Assembly: GCA_965205215.1 (NCBI GenBank) | Contig: OZ242041.1 | Span: forward strand, 384,001-448,000 | Length of the DNA: 64,000 nt | Source of the DNA: Nitrosopumilus sp. | Lineage (GTDB): Archaea > Thermoproteota > Nitrososphaeria > Nitrososphaerales > Nitrosopumilaceae | Reading direction: 5' to 3' | Shown here: positions 2,169 through 59,654 of the stretch, one piece after another | Layout of the letters: every line of letters starts with the position of its first letter | Numbering within the stretch: position 1 is the stretch's first letter | The notes under the pieces: model-generated | Databases searched by the model: none | Seen by the model: only the letters and a program-made list of their open reading frames with translations | What the model was told of the DNA's origin: nothing | Translations under genes and position numbers: made by a program

Positions 2169-3350
2169 TCAGTCCCACAGGCCCTCTCGAAACGTGAGCT
2201 TTTTGTTGAGCACAAAGTTGCTAAAGGCGGCTGCCGCGATGGCCGCAAGCAGGGCAAGCGGGTACGACACACTGTGCGTGTCCACCAGCCAGTACACGGC
2301 CCCGAGCTGCACCGCGGCGCCAAGCGAGCTGAACGCTGCAAACCTGCCGTATTGCGACAGCGTCCGCTTCAATCCAAAGTCGCGGTCCTCAAACGTCCAC
2401 ACCTTGTTGAGCACAAAGTTGGTCGAGAGGGACGCAATGATCCCAAAGGCGTTTGCCTGCACGTACCAAAAGTCGGCCAGTCCGGATGCAAACAGCATGG
2501 AGACAAGATAGTTGACACCGAATCCGGACGCGCCTACCGTAAAGAACCTGGCGGCTTTTGAGAGAAACCTGACCGACCTGCGCTCCTTGGGGGCGGCCTC
2601 CTTGAGTTTCTTGCTCCTGTACAGCCTCCATACCGCGCGCAAATACTCGGTCACCGTCTGGTACAGGGAGGTGTCAAGCTTGCTTGTGCCCAGCCTGCGG
2701 TTCTCAAACGTGTACGGTATCTCGCGCACCGCTATGTTGTTGTTTGCCTTTACCAGCATCTCCAGCAGGAACTTGTAGCCCAGCGCGTCGAACGAAAGCC
2801 CGTTTATGATGTTCCGCTTGAACGCAAAGAACCCCGACATCGGATCCTTGATCTTTACGCGCAGCCCCAGCTTTGCAATTATGGCCGCGCCCTTGCTTAT
2901 CATCCTGCGCTTCAGCGTCCAGTTTCTGGTGCCGCCGCCCCGCACGTACCGCGATGCCACCACCAGGTCGCACTGGTACTGCCTGAGCGCCTCAAGCATC
3001 CTCGGTATGACCTGCGGCGGGTGTGAAAAGTCCGAGTCCATCACCACGATGGTCTCGGCCTTGGCGCTCTGGATCCCCCTCAGTATGGCAGACGCAAGCC
3101 CGCCCTGCCTTGCCTTGCGGTGTATCACGCTTACGGTATCCTCTGCAAGCCGCCTCAGCCCCTCCACATAGTCGTCGACCAAGCGGCCCGTGCCGTCCGG
3201 CGAGTCGTCGTCGACCACGATGGTCTCGGCCCACACGCCCTTGGGGATGTTCTCGCGTATTGACTTTAGGACTGATATGATGTTCTGCGACTCGTTGTAC
3301 GTGGGGATGATGATCGATACCTGCGGGCTGCTTGCAGGGCGTGTCGCCAT
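2169..3350 (-). CDS. GT2 dolichol-phosphate mannosyltransferase-like glycosyltransferase fused to a GtrA domain
   Basis: IIIPTYNE, VVDDDSPDGT, MDSDFSHPP, DPMSGFF; C-terminal GtrA-like transmembrane domain. Confidence 0.9.
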   Translation of the reverse strand: MATRPASSPQVSIIIPTYNESQNIISVLKSIRENIPKGVWAETIVVDDDSPDGTGRLVDDYVEGLRRLAEDTVSVIHRKARQGGLASAILRGIQSAKAETIVVMDSDFSHPPQVIPRMLEALRQYQCDLVVASRYVRGGGTRNWTLKRRMISKGAAIIAKLGLRVKIKDPMSGFFAFKRNIINGLSFDALGYKFLLEMLVKANNNIAVREIPYTFENRRLGTSKLDTSLYQTVTEYLRAVWRLYRSKKLKEAAPKERRSVRFLSKAARFFTVGASGFGVNYLVSMLFASGLADFWYVQANAFGIIASLSTNFVLNKVWTFEDRDFGLKRTLSQYGRFAAFSSLGAAVQLGAVYWLVDTHSVSYPLALLAAIAAAAFSNFVLNKKLTFREGLWD

Positions 3351-12390: not shown

Positions 12391-13677
12391 ATGCGCAAGA
12401 TAGGACAGTTCATCTACCCGTGGGGGGGCGGCCACTATTCTAGAATGATGAGGTTTGACAGGGCGCTGGCGGACCGGATGGGCGGCGATGGGGCGGCGGA
12501 GGTGCATTACTCAAGCAAGGGCCGCATATACCAGAGGCTTCTTGAGCGCTTTGGGGCGGCGGAGGGCCAAACCGACAGAATACACGAGATCCTGATGCCG
12601 ACCCCCATAGACGGCGACATGGGCCCCAGCCTCTCAAGGTCGCTTGCAAACCTGCTGCTCCCGGTGGAGGGAAACCCGGCCCTCGTATCGCAGATCGCCA
12701 ACTACCTGCGCCAGGAGCGCAGGCTGTACGACACGCAAAAGTTTGATCTGGTGGTAAACGACGGCGACGTGGGCTCAAACATACTTGCAAGCAACAGGGA
12801 CATACCGTGCCTGTTCGTCACAAACCAGTTCAAGCCCAGACTGTACAGAACGCGGGCGTACCTGTACCCCGCGGTCGGATTCATAGCAAAGCAGATAGCA
12901 AAGGCCACCAAGATTCTGGTGGCCGACTCACCGCCGCCGCACACCATATGCGAGCACAACCTCAACTTTCCAGACGAGGTCGAGAGGGAAAAGGTCGTGT
13001 ACGTGGGCCACTTTACGGAGGACCGCGGCGGAGACGGAGGCGCAGGACCGACTGCAGCAGCAGAGAAACGGTCCGACACGAACCTGGCCAGGCTGCTTGG
13101 GCAGAACGGCACGGGGGGCTTTGGGTACTGGATGCGCACGGGCAACAAGTCCACCAACGACGGGACCGGCAGGAGGTACGAGGAGGCCTTTGCAAGGGAC
13201 GAGATGAGGGCAGAGCGCAGGATAATCTCGCATGCAAGAAACGACGGCAGCATCGACTCGGTGACTGATGCGGACGGCAGAAGGTACACCATAGCAGAGG
13301 CCGCCGACAGGGGGGTAGACTGGATCCAGATCGACGTGGGTTTTCTGGCCGAGGGCGACAAGGACACGGTGCTTGGCGCGTGCGACTATGCCGTGATCAA
13401 CGGCTCGCACACGGTAATGGGCGAGATAATGGGAGGCAAGGCAAAGCCCATCATAGGGGTCCCCATATACGACGAGCACACGAACAACATAAGATGGGCC
13501 CACGAGCGCGGACTTGGCGCCCTGGCAAACAACACGGGACAGATCATCGAGGCCATACGCGACATAAGGCGCAACAGATCCGAGTATGCAGACAGGCTGT
13601 CAGAGTTCTCCAGGAACTTTGACGGGGGCGGGGCCCAGAACGCGGCCAAGATCGCGGCTGACATCCTCGGGGAATAG
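12391..13677 (+). CDS. GT-B glycosyltransferase (family 28-like)
   Basis: GGGHYSR, NGSHTVMGE, GVPIYDEH. Confidence 0.8.
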   Translation: MRKIGQFIYPWGGGHYSRMMRFDRALADRMGGDGAAEVHYSSKGRIYQRLLERFGAAEGQTDRIHEILMPTPIDGDMGPSLSRSLANLLLPVEGNPALVSQIANYLRQERRLYDTQKFDLVVNDGDVGSNILASNRDIPCLFVTNQFKPRLYRTRAYLYPAVGFIAKQIAKATKILVADSPPPHTICEHNLNFPDEVEREKVVYVGHFTEDRGGDGGAGPTAAAEKRSDTNLARLLGQNGTGGFGYWMRTGNKSTNDGTGRRYEEAFARDEMRAERRIISHARNDGSIDSVTDADGRRYTIAEAADRGVDWIQIDVGFLAEGDKDTVLGACDYAVINGSHTVMGEIMGGKAKPIIGVPIYDEHTNNIRWAHERGLGALANNTGQIIEAIRDIRRNRSEYADRLSEFSRNFDGGGAQNAAKIAADILGE

Positions 13678-52400: not shown

Positions 52401-52458
52401 GGCCCTGCACCGGCCGTCGTCCGCACGGGGTTAAATACTAACTTTGAGACAGGGGTCA

Positions 52459-53139
52459 ATGGCAAACTTCCAGAAGACCTGGTCGAGGCAGGAGACGCCA
52501 ACCATATCCGAAAGGATAGGGTCCGTCGTCAGGCCGAAGGGCCCGCTCAAGCCCCGCATACGGGACGCGACAAAGATGCTAAAGCCGCAGATCAGGAAAC
52601 TGGACTCTATGCTTGGAAGCTTGCAGAAGCGGGATGCCGCGCTGTTCCAGAGGGTCGTTGACGCCGTACAGAAGAACGATCAGCAGACCAGCAAGATCCT
52701 CGGCAACGAACTGGCCGAGATACGCAAGGTTACAAAGGTGCTGGGTGGGGCCAGGACCGCACTGGAGCGTATCGAGCTGCGCCTTACCACGTGCAGCGAC
52801 CTCGGGGACACGGTAGTCACTATAATGCCGACGGTAGCCCTGATGAAGAACATAAAGTCGTCTCTGGGCAAGGTCATGCCGGGGGCAGAGCAGGAGCTGA
52901 CGCAGATGGCCGAGATGCTCGACGGGTTAATGACGGAGAGCTTTGCGGGAGACGCTGCGTTTGGAACGGACTCGGTGACCAGTGCGGAGACAGACGAGAT
53001 ACTAAAGGAGGCCGCAGCCATAGCGGGGACCTCGACAGGACAGATGTTCCCCTCGGTGCCGACCCAGACGCAGGGTGTGTCCACTGCGGCAGCAGCGTCA
53101 TCGCCTGCAGCAGCTCCCAACCGGCACTTTAACCCGTAG
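52459..53139 (+). CDS. CdvB-like ESCRT-III (Snf7 family) protein
   Basis: LKPRI, ELAEIRKV, RLTTCSDLGD, MPGAE; paralogue of 1071-1739. Confidence 0.9.
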   Translation: MANFQKTWSRQETPTISERIGSVVRPKGPLKPRIRDATKMLKPQIRKLDSMLGSLQKRDAALFQRVVDAVQKNDQQTSKILGNELAEIRKVTKVLGGARTALERIELRLTTCSDLGDTVVTIMPTVALMKNIKSSLGKVMPGAEQELTQMAEMLDGLMTESFAGDAAFGTDSVTSAETDEILKEAAAIAGTSTGQMFPSVPTQTQGVSTAAAASSPAAAPNRHFNP

Positions 53140-53234
53140 CCGACGAGCGCATACGGGCTACTCTCTCACACACGCACACGGTGGGCCGACGCCGTGCGGC
53201 ACCCATGTTCGGAGTGGCGACGGCTGCCCTGATG

Positions 53235-53741
53235 CTAGTCTGTAAATTCAGAGGCTGCCCCCGCCGAGGCCTCCTTTGTTCCCTTTATCTTCCTGACCCT
53301 GTCGCCCTCTTCTTCTATGACCTGGTCGATTCCGGCAAGCTTGTTTCTGAGGTTGTTGATTATGGCGCCCACCTCGTCGGCCTCCTCCTCGACCTCCCTC
53401 CTCTTGAGGGCCAGCTTTGTGATCCCGGCGCTCTCGTCCTCTATGTACTCGTTGACCTTTTGGAGCTTTTCCTTGAGGTTCTTGATGTCGACTGACTCGT
53501 CCTCTATGTCCTTTTCAAGCAGGGTGCGCTTGTCCTTGAGGTTCTTTATCATGACCCCGACATAGTCGATGGCCTCCTCGAGCCTTGCACGTTTGTCCAT
53601 CAGGTCCCCGATTCCTATGCGCCCGCCCGGGGCAGTCGGCGCCTCTACGACCGTCCCCTCGCTTGGCGGCCCGGCACTGTTCTCTTCTACTGCTGCCATC
53701 TCCACTTCTCCCTTCCCTTCCCTTCTGAATCTATTAAACAT
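53235..53741 (-). CDS. Coiled-coil hypothetical protein
   Basis: Long heptad pattern; start codon lies 10 bp from the transposon end. Confidence 0.78.
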   Translation of the reverse strand: MFNRFRREGKGEVEMAAVEENSAGPPSEGTVVEAPTAPGGRIGIGDLMDKRARLEEAIDYVGVMIKNLKDKRTLLEKDIEDESVDIKNLKEKLQKVNEYIEDESAGITKLALKRREVEEEADEVGAIINNLRNKLAGIDQVIEEEGDRVRKIKGTKEASAGAASEFTD

Positions 53742-53795
53742 TACAATCAGCGGTTCTAGTGCAAATTCGGGAGCTGGGCACGGCGTGATCTTCTT

Positions 53796-53981
53796 TCAAA
53801 CCTGCCGACCTGCTTCCTGCTTCAAGTATTCCCTGACCCATCGCTCCGCCTCGGCCTTGGGCGGATTGCCCTCCCGCGATATGCAGTATATGGCAAAATC
53901 GGCAAGTTGGTCGCCGTCAAGTCCTAATTTCCTTCCGCGCTCCACGAATGCCCTTACCGTACTCTTTTGACCACGGTTCAT
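53796..53981 (-). CDS. Small hypothetical cargo protein (61 aa)
   Basis: MNRGQKSTVRAFVERG...; TATA-like ATTAAGTA about 25 bp upstream. Confidence 0.55.
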   Translation of the reverse strand: MNRGQKSTVRAFVERGRKLGLDGDQLADFAIYCISREGNPPKAEAERWVREYLKQEAGRQV

Positions 53982-54021
53982 GCAGTGATACAAGGCGGCC
54001 GCTACTTAATCGTATCATGTG

Positions 54022-54108
54022 CGCGGGGGGCGGGACTTGAACCCGCGGTTCACGGGGTGTGAAATGTGTTTCGTAGACACACGCTCTACCAAGCTGAGCG
54101 ACCCCCGC
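54022..54108 (-). tRNA. Atypical tRNA with anticodon ACG (Arg) and long variable arm
   Basis: Cloverleaf GCGGGGG-TC-GCTC/AGCTTGGTA/GAGC-G-TGTGT/CTACGAA/ACACA-18-nt V arm-GCGGG/TTCAAGT/CCCGC-CCCCCGC-G; all four stems fully Watson-Crick. Confidence 0.85.
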
Positions 54109-54195
54109 AAAACTTTTTATCACTATGTGGCGTATGAATGATACGGTTGCCGCTGTAGACACGAATACGGGGTGTGGGCGGTATCCGTATCACAT

Positions 54196-55125
54196 TCAAA
54201 CCCGCTGATCGGTGGCAATCAGGTATAGACTGCTGTTCTGAATGATGGTCTTCCACTTGTTGCGGCCCTCGGTGTGTATGCCTGCCGCCTCTGCCGGGGT
54301 CTTGCAGATTGAGTCATGCTTGCGCACGTGGTTATAGTGAACCTTCATGCCGTCAAACACCGGGGTGTGCGGACTCCGCAGGCCCCGAAACGTCTTCTCC
54401 CTATCACGAATAGTACCGTTCAGGCGCTCCATCTTGTTGTTGGACGGGTGGAAGTTGGCCCCGCTTGTCTTGCCGCTTGGGCCTATGCGCTTGCTCCTGA
54501 TTCCGGCATCACACTTGTGGTATGTCTTGTTGCCAAAGATTTTGCGGGCCGCCTTCTGGTACGCGGGCAGCTTGTCGGTGATCAGCACCGTAGGGTTCTT
54601 GCCACCTGCCGCCTTTTTGGTCATGCGAAATATGTTGTCCGCATCGTGCTTGTCCTTTGAATCCGCAAGCTCGCCCGCCAGCCAGTATCTGGTATCATCA
54701 TCCATCGTGGCAAACAGGTAGTGCTTCCTGCCGTCCACCTTGACCCACACCTCGTCCCCGCGATACCACTTGCCCACGTCGGGGGTGAGGCTGTCAGTGT
54801 ACAAAGAGGCAATCTTGGAGTATCGGTCAACCCACCTTCGTATGGTCGAATCATCAACGTCAATGCCGCGTGCCTCGAACAGGTCGGCGACCGCGTAAGA
54901 GCTCATCCCTGAATAGTAGAGATGGATTGCCTCGCTTACGATTGCCGGATCAAACTGCCTGTACCGGAATCCAAAGTTTGCAGTAAACGCCTTGCCGCAC
55001 GCGTTGCATTTGTACCTCTGAACCGAGCCGTTCTTGTTCTTGCGGACGCCGCGCCTCTTGATTTTATCGGAGCGGCAGAACTTGCAGAATGTAATGACAT
55101 CATGGGAGTCAATGTGAGTGCTCAT
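54196..55125 (-). CDS. DDE transposase, IS6-like with N-terminal zinc ribbon
   Basis: CKFC..QRYKCNAC, HTH STIRRWV, GDEVWV / LITDK / NNKMER triad, KTPAEAAG. Confidence 0.9.
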   Translation of the reverse strand: MSTHIDSHDVITFCKFCRSDKIKRRGVRKNKNGSVQRYKCNACGKAFTANFGFRYRQFDPAIVSEAIHLYYSGMSSYAVADLFEARGIDVDDSTIRRWVDRYSKIASLYTDSLTPDVGKWYRGDEVWVKVDGRKHYLFATMDDDTRYWLAGELADSKDKHDADNIFRMTKKAAGGKNPTVLITDKLPAYQKAARKIFGNKTYHKCDAGIRSKRIGPSGKTSGANFHPSNNKMERLNGTIRDREKTFRGLRSPHTPVFDGMKVHYNHVRKHDSICKTPAEAAGIHTEGRNKWKTIIQNSSLYLIATDQRV

Positions 55126-55354
55126 ACTGCACGCCTCCCACGAATTATAAGAGAGAAAATGAAGGAGTGCTCAGAGTAACAGGCTCTCGTCATTGGCCCT
55201 GTCCGGCCTTTGACTCCTTTTTTCATCATCGCACTTGACTTCATTATACTACCTATGGATATAACAGAATATAAGTGTTGGGTGTATTGGGTAGTATAAC
55301 TATTAGTGGCAAAAAGTAGTATAATGTTATATAGGGTGTCTGAGATGTTATGGT

Positions 55355-55585
55355 ATGGGATCACGTAATCTGAAGACCATCAAGGGCAAGCCGTATCTTT
55401 ACTATGTCATATCCAAGGATGGAAAAAAGAAGGCGATCTACTGCGGGCTGGCATCAAATCACGAATCCGAGAAAAAGGCGCTTGTGCTGGAGCTTGAGGA
55501 AACATCATCGCGTATAAAGTCACTTGAGCTAAAGGCCGTTGAGATAAAATCCAAGCTGGAGGCCTTGCCGGAGGTGCAATCGTGA
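55355..55585 (+). CDS. Small basic putative DNA-binding protein with coiled-coil tail
   Basis: KTIKGKPYLYY..KDGKKKAIYCG beta-hairpin pattern typical of mobile-element proteins; AT-rich promoter. Confidence 0.65.
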   Translation: MGSRNLKTIKGKPYLYYVISKDGKKKAIYCGLASNHESEKKALVLELEETSSRIKSLELKAVEIKSKLEALPEVQS

Positions 55586-55681
55586 TACCGCCAAGCACAC
55601 CTACCGCCAAGCACACCTACCGCCAAGCACACCTACCGCCAAGCACACCTACCGCCAAGCACACCTACCGCCAAGCACACC
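55586..55681 (+). repeat. Perfect tandem repeat, 6 x 16 bp TACCGCCAAGCACACC
   Basis: Units start at 55586, 55602, 55618, 55634, 55650 and 55666; no spacers. Confidence 0.97.
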
Positions 55682-55789
55682 ATAGTTAGCGGGGGGCGAC
55701 CACCATGTCACATATCCAGCAATAGGGGCGCTATAAGTCCACCGGGGGCGGCCTGACTGCCGCCCAAGCCTAACTGGGCCAACCGTACC

Positions 55790-57013
55790 ATGTGGACTGG
55801 TGACAATCTGGACATTATGCGCGGCATGAACTCCGACTCGGTAGATCTCATTTACTTGGATCCTCCCTTTAACAGCAACAAGACATACGAGGCCCCAGTC
55901 GGCTCGGAAGCGGCGGGCGCGGCCTTCAAGGACACGTGGACATTGAGTGATCTTGACATTGCATGGCACGGCTATCTGGCAGACAAGGAGCCCGCCCTGT
56001 ATTCGACAATAGGTACGGCCCGCAGTACGCACGGCAAGTCTATGATGTCATACCTGATCATGATGGGCGTCCGACTTATTGAAATGCGACGCTTGTTAAA
56101 ATCTACGGGTTCAATCTATCTGCACTGCGATCCGACCGCATCACATTATCTCAAGATAGTTATGGATTCGATATTTGGTCATAAGAATTTTAGGAACGAA
56201 ATAGTGTGGTGTTATACTGGGCCCGGCTCTCCAAAAATGCGTCAATTTAACCGTAAACATGACACCTTGTTTTGGTATGTAAAAGGTGAAACGTGGACTT
56301 TTAACACCGATGCAGTGCGCATCAAACATCATGGAAAGACCAAAGAAAATTTTAAGGATGGATTGCGCGGTTCAGGATTCGTAGAAGGAAAATATGGTTT
56401 AGCAGAAGGCAAAGTACCTGAATCTTGGTGGGTTCAAGAGAAAGGCAACGGCTTTGCCATTGCTGCACGACAAAAACATCAATATGTCGGTTACCCTACC
56501 CAAAAACCACTGGCTCTACTAGAGCGAATAATCAAGGCGTCCAGCAATGAGGGTGACGTGATACTCGACCCCTTCTGCGGGTGCGCAACCGCCTGCGTGG
56601 TCGCGGAGCGCCTAAACAGGCAGTGGGTCGGCATCGACCTGTCATCAATGGCGCTTAAACTTGTCAGAAAGAGAATCAAGGAGAGTATCGGCATGTTCGC
56701 ATACGACATAGCAGAACGCGACGACATTCCCAAACGGACGGATCAGGGCAAGATCCCGAATTACCGCACGCACAAGCACGAGCTGTATGGCAGGCAGGAG
56801 GGCATGTGCGTGTGTGGCCAACATTTTCCGTTCAGGAATTTTACCGTAGACCACATCGTCCCGCAGAGCAAGGGCGGCACGGATCACGCAGACAACCTCC
56901 AACTACTATGCGGTGCCTGCAACAGCCTCAAGGGCAACAGGGAGCAGGCATACCTCATTGCCAAACTCAAGGAGAATGGGATCGATGCACTCATGCCCCC
57001 GATACGGGCCTGA
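55790..57013 (+). CDS. Beta-class adenine DNA methyltransferase fused to a C-terminal HNH endonuclease
   Basis: YLDPPF, YPTQKP, LDPFCGC; C-terminal CVC...VDHIVP.SKGG...NLQLLC..CN..KG. Confidence 0.9.
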   Translation: MWTGDNLDIMRGMNSDSVDLIYLDPPFNSNKTYEAPVGSEAAGAAFKDTWTLSDLDIAWHGYLADKEPALYSTIGTARSTHGKSMMSYLIMMGVRLIEMRRLLKSTGSIYLHCDPTASHYLKIVMDSIFGHKNFRNEIVWCYTGPGSPKMRQFNRKHDTLFWYVKGETWTFNTDAVRIKHHGKTKENFKDGLRGSGFVEGKYGLAEGKVPESWWVQEKGNGFAIAARQKHQYVGYPTQKPLALLERIIKASSNEGDVILDPFCGCATACVVAERLNRQWVGIDLSSMALKLVRKRIKESIGMFAYDIAERDDIPKRTDQGKIPNYRTHKHELYGRQEGMCVCGQHFPFRNFTVDHIVPQSKGGTDHADNLQLLCGACNSLKGNREQAYLIAKLKENGIDALMPPIRA

Positions 57014-57094
57014 TTTTTTTGTGCCTATATCACGAATCTGCAATAGTATTCTTTCTTGCCCGTTTATATTGCATCTACGCCCACGTATGACGTG

Positions 57095-57457
57095 ATGTTC
57101 GAAAGCAAAATCTCCGACGACTATGACGACAGACCCATCCCGGACAGCGTACCGATAGGCACGTTGGCGTACAGGTGGTGCCAGCATAGTGGCAATAGAG
57201 AGGCCATACACTACTCGTTCAAGCGATGGTCATTTCCGGGGGACTATGACGAGGATGAACTGAACAGGGCCATAGACGAGTCCCTTGCAAAGTATCCGGA
57301 GGCCCTAAGGGCATTCCTCGAACGCAAGAAAGACGTCGAGGATGATGGGAATCTCATGTGCAGCTATCCGGCAGAGGATCCCACGCGCACGGACGATTCA
57401 GATAGCAGTGCCTCGCAACCGAATTCTCAACAGTACCGTCCCTTGAACACTTATTAA
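57095..57457 (+). CDS. Acidic hypothetical cargo protein
   Basis: TTTATAT box about 26 bp before ATG; open frame to TAA. Confidence 0.6.
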   Translation: MFESKISDDYDDRPIPDSVPIGTLAYRWCQHSGNREAIHYSFKRWSFPGDYDEDELNRAIDESLAKYPEALRAFLERKKDVEDDGNLMCSYPAEDPTRTDDSDSSASQPNSQQYRPLNTY

Positions 57458-57941
57458 CTGACATGCAGGCAAAAGAACGGGGGCGCGATTATCTCTACCC
57501 ATTCTAGAGACGTCGCATTGTCACGGCTTATCGGCCCCCAATTTTCATAATGCGTCTTCATGTTCTGACGCCGTGCCTAGCTCCCGAATTTGCACTAGAA
57601 CCCAATCAGCCCCGGCCGCTTGGCATAAAAAGATAGGCCCCGGCACCGCCCCCGCGCGGGCATCGCGCACCTGCATAACGGTCGGAAACTAGATTGTCCG
57701 GTGCAGTCCAGAACCACCGTCCGGCCCGAGAAAATGCCCGTCCCTCTCATGCCCCTAAAGCATGGCGGTGCACATATTTTCAATTACTGGGTCGTATGGA
57801 CCAAGCCCGGCGCATCTCACGACCCGGGCGTATGTGAAGGGCCGTCTCGGCGTGTGGCGGCGGCCGCAGCAGCAGCGTGTCGGTAGGAGCACGCCGCCGC
57901 CGATCTCAAGATATAAAAAGTGGATTTCCAAGTCGGCAGGC

Positions 57942-59654
57942 ATGGCAATACAGGCGACGTCAAAGGGCAACATGCCCGTCGTACTCCTAAAGGAGGGCGG
58001 CACCGAGACCAAGGGCAGGGACGCGCAAAAGAACAACATTGCAGCGTCAAAGATAATCTCGGAGATAGTGCACTCCAGCCTCGGCCCGCGCGGCATGGAC
58101 AAGATGCTGGTAGACTCGCTTGGAGACGTTACGATAACAAACGACGGGGCGACCATCCTAAAGGAGATCGACGTACAGCACCCGGCGGCCAAGATGCTTG
58201 TAGAGATATCCAAGACCACCGACAACGAGGTAGGCGACGGCACCACCTCCGCGGTCGTTCTTGCCGGCGCCCTGCTTGAGAACGCCGAGTCGCTCTTGGA
58301 TCAGAACGTCCACCCCACGATCATAGTGGACGGATACCGCAGGGCGGGCAAGCAGGCCGAGGAGTTCCTCAGGGAGATTGCCGAGCCGGTCACGCCCGAC
58401 GACAGGGACGTCCTGACGAAGATTGCAAAGACGTCCATGCAGACAAAGCTCGTGCGCAAGGACTCGGATCAGATTGCCGGGATAATAGTGGACGCGGTAC
58501 TCACGGTCTCCGAGAAGAACGGCGACGATTACGACGTCGACATCGATGACATAAAGGTCGAGAAGAAGGCGGGCGGCTCAATAAAGGACTCGTCGATAGT
58601 CCGGGGGATTGTCCTTGACAAGGAGATTGTACACGGCGGAATGCCAAAGGACGTCTCGGACGCGAAGATCGCGCTCCTCAACACGGCGCTCGAGATCAGC
58701 AAGACCGAGACGGACGCCAAGATCAACATATCCGATCCGCAGCAGCTAAAGTCCTTCCTTGACGAGGAGAACAACATGCTCAAGTCGATGGTCGACAAGG
58801 TGACCGGCACCGGGGCCAACGTGGTTTTGTGCCAGAAGGGAATAGACGAGATGGCGCAGCACTATCTGGCAAAGGCCGGGATAATTGCGGTCAGGCGCAT
58901 AAAGGAGAGCGACCTTACAAAGCTCTCGAGGGCCACCGGCGGCAGGGTGGTTACGAACCTTGACGATCTGTCAGCAGACGACCTGGGCGCGGCCTCGCTG
59001 GTGGAGGAGAGGAAGATAGAAGAGGACAAGTGGGTCTTTGTGGAGGGATGCAAGAACCCAAAATCCGTTACACTGCTCCTGCGCGGAGGCTCGCAGAGGG
59101 TCGTCGACGAGGCGGAGCGCTCCGTCCACGACGCGCTGATGGTAGTCAGGGACGTCATACTGAACCCGTCCGTGGTGGCAGGCGGAGGCTCGCCTGAGAC
59201 CTTTGCGGCCACAAAGCTCCGGAGCTGGGCAAAGTCCCTGGAGGGCAGGGAGCAGCTTGCCGCAGAAAAGTTTGCCGACTCCCTCGAGTCGCTTCCGCTT
59301 ACCCTTGCAGAGAACGCCGGGATGGACCCGATAGACACGCTGACGCTCCTGCGCTCAAAGCAGCAGCGCGGCGAGAGCTGGACGGGCATCGACGTGATGG
59401 AGGCGAGGATCGCAAGCATGAAGAACAGCGAGATAATCGAGCCCCTCTCAGTAAAGCTGCAGGTCACGTCGTCGGCGACGGAGGCCGCCTGCATGATTCT
59501 CAGGATTGATGACGTCATCGCCACGCAAAAGTCCGCCGGGGGACCCCCGGGAGGCGGGGAAGGCGGCATGCCCGGAATGGGTGGCATGGGCGGCATGCCC
59601 GGAGGAATGCCCGGAATGGGCGGCGGCATGCCCGACATGGGCGGAATGATGTAG
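57942..59654 (+). CDS. Thermosome (group II chaperonin) subunit
   Basis: SLGPRGMDKM, TNDGATIL, GDGTTS, GGM tail. Confidence 0.97.
   Translation: MAIQATSKGNMPVVLLKEGGTETKGRDAQKNNIAASKIISEIVHSSLGPRGMDKMLVDSLGDVTITNDGATILKEIDVQHPAAKMLVEISKTTDNEVGDGTTSAVVLAGALLENAESLLDQNVHPTIIVDGYRRAGKQAEEFLREIAEPVTPDDRDVLTKIAKTSMQTKLVRKDSDQIAGIIVDAVLTVSEKNGDDYDVDIDDIKVEKKAGGSIKDSSIVRGIVLDKEIVHGGMPKDVSDAKIALLNTALEISKTETDAKINISDPQQLKSFLDEENNMLKSMVDKVTGTGANVVLCQKGIDEMAQHYLAKAGIIAVRRIKESDLTKLSRATGGRVVTNLDDLSADDLGAASLVEERKIEEDKWVFVEGCKNPKSVTLLLRGGSQRVVDEAERSVHDALMVVRDVILNPSVVAGGGSPETFAATKLRSWAKSLEGREQLAAEKFADSLESLPLTLAENAGMDPIDTLTLLRSKQQRGESWTGIDVMEARIASMKNSEIIEPLSVKLQVTSSATEAACMILRIDDVIATQKSAGGPPGGGEGGMPGMGGMGGMPGGMPGMGGGMPDMGGMM

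Follow-up and report, generated by a model that had tools for sequence, protein, structure and literature searches.

The closest described relatives of the element reported here are insertion sequences (ISs) of the IS6 family, which, in the accessible part of a review devoted to them (PMC7986276), are marked by a GG tip, the end motifs cTGTt and caaa, and an 8-bp target duplication. Described members measure ~0.8 kb and have their passengers lying between two IS copies, while ISDsp3 is the single member named there with one passenger gene; in the same portion of that review, term counts for tRNA and for Thaumarchaeota were both 0. A survey of thaumarchaeal mobile elements likewise describes, in the excerpts at hand, IS-like transposons with "typically 1 or 2 genes" (PMC6563490). 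As for RNA genes on mobile DNA, Pyrobaculum C/D-box genes are reported, as far as the excerpted text goes, on copies resembling miniature inverted-repeat transposable elements only (PMC6009581), and in E. coli some bacterial allo-tRNAs have been reported to incorporate serine at other codons (PMC5389517). In the present study, a 64,000-nucleotide (nt) stretch of Nitrosopumilus sp. DNA (assembly GCA_965205215.1, contig OZ242041.1, positions 384,001 to 448,000 of the forward strand; hereafter the window, whose numbering is used throughout) was found to contain at 53752-57602 what is very probably one intact, single-copy and recently inserted DNA transposon, moved as a single unit by an IS6-like DDE transposase. 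As in a transporter IS (tIS), passenger genes unrelated to transposition move here within one IS end pair with a single transposase. The features that delimit and mobilise the element are the following:

53744..53751, no strand: left copy of the target-site duplication (TSD), CAATCAGC, read from the sequence and being exactly the 8 letters common to the empty-site joint
53752..53786, forward strand: terminal inverted repeat (TIR) on the side of the transposase 3' end, beginning GGTTCTAGTGCAAATTCGGG; one arm of a 34/35 repeat pair, 2 copies in window and genome
54196..55125, reverse strand: transposase of 309 amino acids (aa), with an N-terminal CxxC...CxxC zinc finger and an IS6/IS240-type DDE domain (PF13610, NF033587, homologues)
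57568..57602, reverse strand: TIR on the cargo side, the other arm of the same pair, 2 copies in window and genome
57603..57610, no strand: right copy of the TSD, CAATCAGC, from the sequence and the empty-site joint

The repeat search of the window returned two arms of 35 nt each, 34/35 (97%) complementary, which enclose 3,851 bp from tip to tip, and in the raw sequence the octamer CAATCAGC abuts both arms on the outside. The first 24 nt of the TIR occur exactly twice in the window, where 0 copies were expected from 100 shuffles, and exactly twice across the whole 2,098,239-bp genome; with the TIR present twice and the full transposase once, no additional copy of the element was found in its own genome. 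Inside the ends lie the transposase, four further open reading frames (ORFs) and two RNA genes. Elsewhere in this genome, a related transposase gene has left short relics of its 3' end (C1:973180-973320, 652738-652870 and 916595-916641; 68% aa and 76-83% nt identity), which show that the family was active here earlier.

A search of sequencing runs supports both the assembly and the recent arrival of the segment. Two runs (X1 and X2) contain nearly all words of 52900-58500, while others hold only about the share that the flanks alone would give. The contigs of run X1 covering 52900-55615 and 55652-58500 show 0 differences each and bridge both element junctions, and the depth across the junctions equals that of the flanks. 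The sole X1 contig break falls inside a 16-bp tandem array of the element, where a 44-nt unitig has a depth of 267 vs 65, the ratio expected with six array copies. The empty site was recovered as a joint from 53743 to 57603, which skips 3859 letters and has 8 letters that fit either side, in X3 (2 contigs) and X5 (1 contig), two runs that come from different studies; no such joint was seen in X1. In X5, the neighbouring contig stops at 53750, giving a 30-letter overlap with the joint contig, and the break matches the repeat tips exactly. This exact coincidence with the TIR tips, together with the 8 common letters, argues against a chance joint, and an empty site with a single CAATCAGC indicates that the whole TIR-to-TIR segment was inserted recently as one unit. 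The initial annotation, made from the sequence alone, had described 35-bp TIRs with one mismatch and an exact 8-bp TSD around 3851 bp, with a lone internal transposase and cargo on both sides, and all the components it named were found where it had placed them; its proposal of a recently inserted transporter-type element, to be checked by an empty site with a single octamer, is borne out by the sites in X3 and X5 that lack the entire 3,851 bp, while the mis-assembly that it named as a refutation is contradicted by the X1 contigs spanning both junctions. At the same locus, identity to 30 related species does not exceed 76%, and 7 of these have the flanks ~30 kb apart, which makes the empty site unusable there. 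In these relatives (G002, G003, G006, G009, G014, G017 and G018), the left genes (52444-53741) and the right thermosome gene (57762-59654) lie ~28-39 kb apart in opposite relative orientation; because the empty-site contigs join both flanks in this species without the element, that rearrangement is older than the insertion and independent of it.

The transposase matches PF13610 (DDE_Tnp_IS240) with E=1.7e-11 and 44.9 bits against a cut-off of 27, and the motifs DE..., TD..Y and NN.ME......R were read by eye. Its homologues number 806, the nearest being 89% identical, and NCBI names them only "DDE-type integrase/transposase/recombinase". The window TIR reads GGTTCTAGTGCAAATTCG, in which the GG tip, CT.GT and CAAA are IS6-type end motifs, and the ends of relatives at other loci read GGTTCTGTTGCAAATTCG (L031) and GGTACTGGTGCAAATTCG (L028 and L029). 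Some observations weigh against the reading as a recently moved IS6/IS240-type unit. The best NCBIfam match of the transposase, the IS6 equivalog NF033587, reaches 106.5 bits and thus stays below its cut-off of 125; on its shorter side, the joint of the empty-site contigs is supported by only 23 letters, under the warning threshold (<30); activity in this genome can be deduced from one insertion event only, since a second genomic copy is missing; and the contigs of RNA run X22 fall on the two flanking host genes only and none on the element, which is uninformative for element expression. Cointegrate-type joints were not seen in the runs compared, which is uninformative either way. Because of the NCBIfam score, and of a size and passenger load outside the family description, the element is filed as IS6-like and not as a regular member. 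An IS6-like nature had been proposed at the outset, and this part stands on the ends, the 8-bp duplication and the IS240-type DDE domain, while size and passengers are unlike those of described members.

A scan by script showed that the element belongs to a large, apparently uncatalogued family of TIR-bounded cargo elements in Nitrosopumilaceae-type archaea. The scan covered 76 sequences with a transposase homologue, namely the window and 75 loci (designated by L numbers), and accepted as TIR pairs inverted ends that start G[GA]T[TA]CT and have at least 16 of 20 matches. The transposase homologue is present in 22 of 61 related genomes, with up to 38 matches in one genome, and the closest public transposase relatives (70-84% identity) belong to metagenome-assembled genome records titled Nitrosopumilaceae or Thaumarchaeota. 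A TIR pair was found in 43 of the 76 sequences, and 27 of those 43 have identical 8-bp flanks; these 27 TSD-flanked elements measure 1,098-6,893 bp, and 26 of them exceed 1.8 kb. Among metagenome loci, 9 of 26 have TIRs plus the duplication, including a 1,135-bp cargo-less form, and two repeat genome loci. No close copy was found among JGI metagenome contigs, whose 28 transposase loci are all at most 51% identical. Many of the nearest transposase homologues (80-89% identity) lie on ENA contigs of ~3.5-3.9 kb, one of them 3,848 nt long, and repeated elements of such size would assemble alone in this way. Unusually long ends were observed at two loci, 468 bp (466/468) for L071:1646-8538 and 1,424 bp (1420/1424) for L073:284-8117, where entire terminal segments, in L071 with methylase sequence among them, occur as inverted duplicates.

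The cargo of this family was surveyed by a Pfam run on 109 non-transposase ORFs from the 26 TSD-flanked relatives. A DNA methylase is carried by 14 of these relatives (PF01555 in 11, EcoRI-type in 2, PF02384 in 1) and, with the window included, by 15 of the 27 TSD-flanked elements, which makes it the commonest cargo. A methylase-HNH fusion is present in L029 and L031, and a split methylase plus HNH in L056; L032 and L051 carry a GmrSD_N-HNH protein with an EcoRI-type methylase, L069 a methylase with a CfrBI nuclease, and other TSD-flanked relatives GmrSD, a ResIII helicase or NurA. Foreign ISs are nested within L078 and L084. The initial annotation had suggested looking for TIR-bounded copies with variable cargo, of which there are none in this genome and 27 among the 76 sequences, and it had not recognised the combination as a described system; no published description was found, but the element is one member of a large family and not a one-off. 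No published account of this design, cargo spectrum and target habit was found, although the supplementary tables of PMC6563490 and PMC7986276 may list IS6-type elements.

The insertion lies directly before a host gene, and two features are needed to describe its target:

53235..53741, reverse strand: host gene for a 168-aa coiled-coil protein (ORF list; weak coiled-coil/SMC-like matches only)
57625..57631, reverse strand: TTTTTAT box, candidate TATA box of the 168-aa gene (from the sequence and the family-wide A/T-box enrichment on that flank)

The ATG of the 168-aa gene (53741) is 2 nt from the left duplication, the element is oriented in the direction of this gene, and the gene region 53323-53690 is covered by contigs from the RNA run of a related strain. 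In the empty site, the TTTTTAT box lies ~28 nt upstream of the ATG, which is 2 nt past the octamer; with the element between box and ATG, the 168-aa gene is now separated from its presumed TATA box. Across the family, elements were oriented by their transposase and compared with random intergenic positions of the same loci (1000 draws). On the cargo-side flank, the mean A/T fraction at -12 to -7 before the duplication is 0.83 vs 0.57 +/- 0.04, and 14 of 26 elements have an A/T run of at least 6 whose end lies 2-8 nt ahead of the duplication, vs 3.1 +/- 1.6 at random, values which 0 of 1000 draws reach in either case. Past the other duplication, an ORF of at least 60 codons in transposase direction starts within 40 nt in 10 of 27 elements. 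The window agrees with this pattern in its broad outline but not in spacing, its box being 14 nt from the duplication instead of 2-8, and it is therefore one of the 12 misses. As judged from these flank statistics, the family tends to insert just downstream of TATA-like boxes, and such a landing place suggests that targets are chosen via the archaeal transcription initiation complex. Promoter-targeted integration is known from yeast retroelements, of which this might be a prokaryotic counterpart.

Besides proteins, the element carries two RNA genes, one of which lies directly upstream of the presumed transposase promoter:

54021..54108, reverse strand: class-II tRNA of 88 nt with a serine-type body and anticodon ACG (Arg, reads CGU), from ARAGORN, Rfam, the fold and identity to tRNA-Ser(GCU)
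55145..55150, reverse strand: TTATAA box, candidate leaderless transposase promoter, 19 nt before the transposase ATG; the TATAATT columns do not vary between the window and seven relatives
55166..55235, reverse strand: C/D-box sRNA-like gene of 70 nt, from weak Rfam matches, conserved layout, covarying stems and guide-rRNA pairing

ARAGORN calls the 88-nt gene as tRNA-Arg(ACG), and the Rfam tRNA model scores it at 56.3 bits (gathering 29) with a 14-nt insertion at the variable loop. Its minimum free energy fold is a perfect class-II cloverleaf with a 7-bp acceptor stem, a 5-bp variable-arm hairpin and the discriminator G73. The nearest host tRNA is tRNA-Ser(GCU), 73% identical and of the same architecture, while the host Arg tRNAs (UCU, UCG, CCG and GCG) are quite unlike it. 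Its best matches in 400 other family genomes are 71-74% identical over 85-89 nt, and no closer copy was found in these genomes; matches were tallied in 88 of 401 genomes, including six flagged as unpublished (G313, G153, G263, G137, G312 and G285), and the 9 best-match loci that were checked, from none of these six, are all tRNA-Ser(GCU). Since the best matches checked are all tRNA-Ser(GCU), the gene is a serine-type body with an arginine anticodon, ACG standing where NGA or GCU would be of serine type. A tRNA had been listed among the cargo from the beginning and is present, while the label "tRNA-Arg" has to be corrected in this sense. In archaea, serine identity lies in the long variable arm and the discriminator G73, and seryl-tRNA synthetases (SerRS) read these features and not the anticodon, so that charging with serine is at least as likely as with arginine. 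A bulge-helix-bulge intron was considered for the variable arm and ruled out by eye, the arm being a plain 5-bp hairpin that covaries family-wide.

Class-II tRNAs of 84-88 nt recur in 7 of the 27 TSD-flanked elements, mostly with non-serine, non-leucine anticodons:

TSD-flanked elements: window ACG; L049 UAA; L053, L056 and L084 UAU; L060 CAG; L078 AUC
within TIR pairs without duplication: L044 CAG; L073 GAA
beside a transposase gene, no TIR pair found: L034 UUC; L040 UAA

The set leaves out L080, which has a normal tRNA-Leu with A73, and two L041 tRNA-Ser copies outside the element. Folded to a consensus, these 11 element-linked tRNAs show 7 bp in the acceptor stem and 5 bp in the T stem, and 21 of the 27 consensus pairs show a compensatory change, including the variable-arm stem; the discriminator is G in 10 of 11. 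Similar genes were also observed elsewhere. The same genome has, at C1:1241890-1241978 (L127:3891-3979, reverse strand), a second class-II-like tRNA of 89 nt with anticodon GAU and G73, beside a normal 77-nt tRNA-Ile(GAU). It lies in a low-GC island near an SF1 helicase, a 745-aa PF01555 methylase and a free-standing SWIM zinc-finger ORF that resembles the N-terminus of related transposases (E=3e-8), and the ~40 nt upstream of tRNA(ACG) and of tRNA(GAU) are loosely similar to each other. At L041, a normal tRNA-Ser(GCU) (3242-3328) has a near-identical copy 9 kb off (12395-12481) with anticodon ACU and T-arm mismatches, and both copies fall outside the 1,855-bp element of that locus.

The second RNA gene has a guide-RNA layout, namely a 5' stem, box C (AUGAUGA), an internal hairpin, box C' (AUGACGA), a 12-nt guide GAGCCUGUUACU, box D (CUGA) and a 3' stem, with a degenerate D' box. 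Rfam returned sR14 (E=0.0074) and SNORD109A (E=0.23), neither of which reaches its gathering score (22.2 bits vs 38). The layout pattern occurs in 8 of the 76 sequences, each time 104-122 nt upstream of the transposase, vs 0 reverse-strand controls and 5 of 760 random windows. In the alignment of the window with its seven close relatives, boxes C, C' and D are invariant and the guide between C' and D is variable, its length being 12 nt in 8 of 8, while the terminal stem and the internal hairpin keep their pairing via two-sided changes. Host genes for fibrillarin and Nop5 are present, and no published C/D gene inside a DDE transposon was found in the literature. The guides were compared with the rRNAs of the host by the longest contiguous Watson-Crick run, with 500 shuffles each:

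window guide: run of 10, 23S 2536-2545, 5 of 500 shuffles
L027 guide: run of 10, same 23S site as the window guide, 3 of 500 shuffles
L037 guide: run of 10, 23S 847, 4 of 500 shuffles
L029 guide: run of 9, 23S 2644, 10 of 500 shuffles
L032 guide: run of 9, 16S 906, 28 of 500 shuffles

The window guide also forms 11 of 12 pairs with tRNA-Met, with a central mismatch and only 6 contiguous pairs. C/D guides direct methylation to the target nucleotide that pairs with the fifth nucleotide of the guide, counted upstream from box D. By this rule, the site predicted for both the window guide and the L027 guide is 23S 2538, the second A of GGGAUAACAGGC, a motif that starts at annotated 2444 in the E. 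coli 23S gene, whose annotation is one base short of the canonical 2904, which leads to A2451. The predicted target of the window guide is thus the A2451 equivalent in the 23S peptidyl-transferase centre, and the ribose 2'-OH of A2451 is described as essential for peptide-bond formation in the accessible part of PMC5829716. Against rRNA guiding stand the L026, L028 and L031 guides, which reach runs of 6-7 and no significant rRNA target, the fact that the 23S site is identical in the L028 and L031 hosts and yet their guides lack a good match, and a looser, mismatch-allowing score, under which 7 of 60 shuffles equal the guide-rRNA match of the window. Covariation of guide and target was not found for CGAAUUGCAC-type guides, the 23S site being identical in the L028/L031 and L029 hosts, and two more genomes showed no 23S match.

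The role of the two RNAs can be read in more than one way. They may be structured modules that serve the element and are not translation factors, such as mRNA processing signals, insulators, a k-turn at the transposase promoter or nuclease decoys. The tRNA does not keep one place with respect to the transposase (in L044, L053, L056, L060 and L073 it is upstream and on the same strand, in the window, L049 and L078 downstream), and this agrees with such modules, as do the 3 of 8 guides without an rRNA match, but the cloverleaf covaries in full, including the anticodon stem, the conserved boxes with variable guides and a fixed 12-nt spacing are the signature of a working C/D guide, and 5 of 8 guides have 9-10 contiguous rRNA pairs vs 46 of 1000 random 12-mers from the same loci with at least 9. 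We regard such modules as a real possibility, though on the unlikely side. Alternatively, the tRNA might be a working decoder like phage tRNAs, charged by arginyl-tRNA synthetase via C35/G36 and supplying the host-rare CGU, with its serine-like body an accident of descent. CGU makes up 4.0 per 1000 codons in the host (905 long ORFs) vs 9.2 per 1000 in the element ORFs, a difference based on a small sample of nine codons, and the window tRNA retains U33 and purine 37, as do 7 of the 8 further distinct tRNAs linked to elements (by eye; the L040 fold is unclear). The host tRNA-Arg(GCG), however, already reads CGU by wobble, its body is like that of tRNA-Ser and unlike those of the host Arg tRNAs, and charging with serine by SerRS, which ignores the anticodon, is at least as likely; an arginine decoder appears rather unlikely. 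The boldest interpretation is that promoter-seeking archaeal transposons spread RNA genes acting on translation, in which case tRNA(ACG) would be charged with serine and read the rare Arg codon CGU, and the element would tune or damage decoding and peptide-bond formation; we offer this only tentatively and hold it to be unlikely as a whole.

The remaining interior of the element is made up of protein genes and a repeat array:

53796..53993, reverse strand: small ORF between the tRNA and the element end, 65 aa with TTG as start codon or 61 aa with the first ATG (ORF list; one homologue)
55355..55585, forward strand: conserved 76-aa protein, divergent from the transposase (homologues at matching position; weak DUF7922 match only)
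55586..55681, no strand: perfect tandem array between the 76-aa ORF and the methylase gene, 6.0 x 16 bp, unit TACCGCCAAGCACACC, 100% identical (repeat search)
55790..57013, forward strand: fusion of a beta-class amino-DNA methyltransferase (DPPF) and an HNH nuclease, 407 aa (Pfam, PADLOC, PDB relatives)
57056..57457, forward strand: acidic ORF, 133 aa, or 120 aa from the ATG at 57095 (ORF list)

In the fusion protein, PF01555 covers residues 18-291 (E=1.6e-46) and PF01844 residues 341-384 (E=1.2e-13), PADLOC calls a Type II MTase (MTase_II, E=6.7e-55) with only methylase models matched, and the PDB relatives of the methylase are MboIIA, RsrI and CcrM, beta-class adenine/cytosine-N methylases. 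At least 8000 homologues have E <= 0.001, and both domains are present in 118 of the 120 listed, which are, apart from the protein itself, 55-74% identical and of which several are named from bacteria; such a huge family marks it as an ordinary, widely exchanged gene. A second PF01555-type region with 74% nt similarity to parts of the element methylase was observed at C1:1163140-1163841. Homologues of the 76-aa protein (34-50% identity) occupy the equivalent divergent position in 7 loci, while a MazE/AbrB-like ORF takes this slot in L043; the 76-aa protein is probably a small DNA-binding regulator of the element. The 65-aa ORF has one homologue, in L029 at the same position (40% over 53 aa), and the 133-aa ORF a short 78% DNA match at C1:665665-665733; neither belongs to a family in Pfam, NCBIfam or PADLOC. 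The 16-bp array was considered as a conserved functional part and rejected, since TRF found nothing comparable in relatives: among the 43 TIR-bounded candidates, only L045 and L046 carry an array, of a different 24-bp unit. These two are same-contig copies of one element, and their array upstream of the transposase has 3.0 copies in L045:5632-5703 vs 4.0 in L046:3211-3306.

Taken as a mobile unit, the element most likely works as follows. The zinc-finger DDE transposase would recognise both 35-nt TIRs, and the whole 3,851-bp unit would be inserted with an 8-bp staggered cut, as the chemistry of the family suggests, movement presumably proceeding via an IS6-type replicative cointegrate and its resolution, or else by cut-and-paste. 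The target would be picked near a TATA-like box, here between such a box and the start codon of the 168-aa gene. The methylase-HNH protein would most likely protect and stabilise the element, combining modification and restriction in one polypeptide, and the 76-aa protein would most likely regulate the divergent promoters. The tRNA(ACG) and the C/D guide RNA, the latter possibly aimed at the 23S peptidyl-transferase centre, would most likely be expressed passengers acting on host translation.

The unity of the segment itself could be questioned if the structure were compound or one-ended, i.e., a short IS beside host DNA that ends in the solo repeat of another copy, so that the cargo would be host sequence. 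The ~0.8-kb size and the paired IS copies of described IS6 members, as given in the accessible part of PMC7986276, and the short transposase relics elsewhere in the genome would suit such a structure, but it is largely refuted by the empty site, from which all 3,851 bp are missing and where one octamer remains. Moreover, even with up to 3 mismatches allowed, the interior of the element contains no additional TIR copy, no transposase remnant was found beside the right repeat, relatives repeat the design of one transposase, two TIRs and an 8-bp duplication at sizes of 1.9-6.9 kb, and the GC content of the element (0.43-0.57) is below that of the host (~0.60), all of which makes a compound origin very improbable. 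An assembly artefact, or an integrated plasmid or virus remnant with coincidental inverted repeats, deserves next to no credence, for although short-read contigs break in the 16-bp array, X1 bridges both junctions with 0 differences at flank-equal depth, no integrase, replication or capsid family was found in Pfam, NCBIfam or PADLOC, and TIRs with an 8-bp duplication are characteristic of DDE transposition.

A single, recently inserted IS6-like transposon is accordingly the reading we retain, and its interest lies in several points. IS6 elements are the textbook minimal ISs that move other genes only as pairs, while this distant archaeal branch moves kilobases within one end pair, and here an insertion polymorphism has been caught in natural populations. 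The cargo is non-random, with restriction-modification dominant and translation-touching RNA genes recurring. Should the RNAs prove functional, mobile DNA could alter code reading and ribosome modification in ammonia oxidisers that are abundant in the sea and in sponges, and natural mistranslating tRNAs in archaea would become directly testable. Passenger-bearing DDE transposons are already known; what is new here is an IS6-like DDE transposon with a design, cargo spectrum and target habit not found in print.

Compared with known systems, the methylase-HNH protein recalls Type II restriction-modification modules on mobile elements, with a DPPF PF01555 methylase and HNH as the likely cleaving partner, but joins both in one 407-aa chain, a fusion that is widespread at 60-74% identity. 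The element tRNAs resemble the allo-tRNAs and irregular tRNAs described from bacteria of soil (Mukai et al. 2017, PMC5389517), which are likewise of serine type with a long variable arm and non-serine anticodons, among which UAU is frequent in both groups, and which lie near transposon-related or toxin-antitoxin genes, a mobile-element context shared here. The allo-tRNAs, however, are bacterial and have 8/4 or 9/3 acceptor/T-stem architecture, whereas the element tRNAs are archaeal, have the canonical 7/5 and lie inside TIR-bounded transposons. With the archaeal C/D-box sRNAs of Pyrobaculum, as covered by the excerpts of PMC6009581, the guide-RNA-like gene shares boxes C, C' and D, a guide of 12 nt that precedes D, a terminal stem, complementarity to rRNA concentrated in its functional centres, and a host with fibrillarin and Nop5; it differs in its degenerate D', its internal hairpin and its place as a fixed part of a DDE transposon beside the transposase promoter. 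As to the unit as a whole, it shares with IS6/IS26 elements (IS26, IS257, IS240), within what the accessible review text covers, the IS240-type DDE domain, the GG tip, the CTGT/CAAA motifs and the 8-bp duplication, and its transposase resembles the longer clade h, where an N-terminal zinc-finger extension is known. The differences from the same text are a length of 3.85 kb vs ~0.8 kb, five or six passengers inside one end pair, and a home in Nitrosopumilaceae-type archaea, which go without mention there; insertion in the present family also appears to prefer TATA-like boxes, and the unit falls outside the compact IS6 format (~0.7-0.9 kb, up to ~1.7 kb in long clades, with the transposase as sole gene). 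The tIS ISDsp3 of Dehalococcoides, as described in that portion of the review, is similar in having one transposase and passenger DNA inside IS ends, but it carries one hypothetical gene, whereas the present element and its relatives carry restriction-modification genes, tRNAs and a guide RNA, and cargo, an exception in the family of ISDsp3, is the rule in this one (26 of 27 TSD-flanked elements >1.8 kb).

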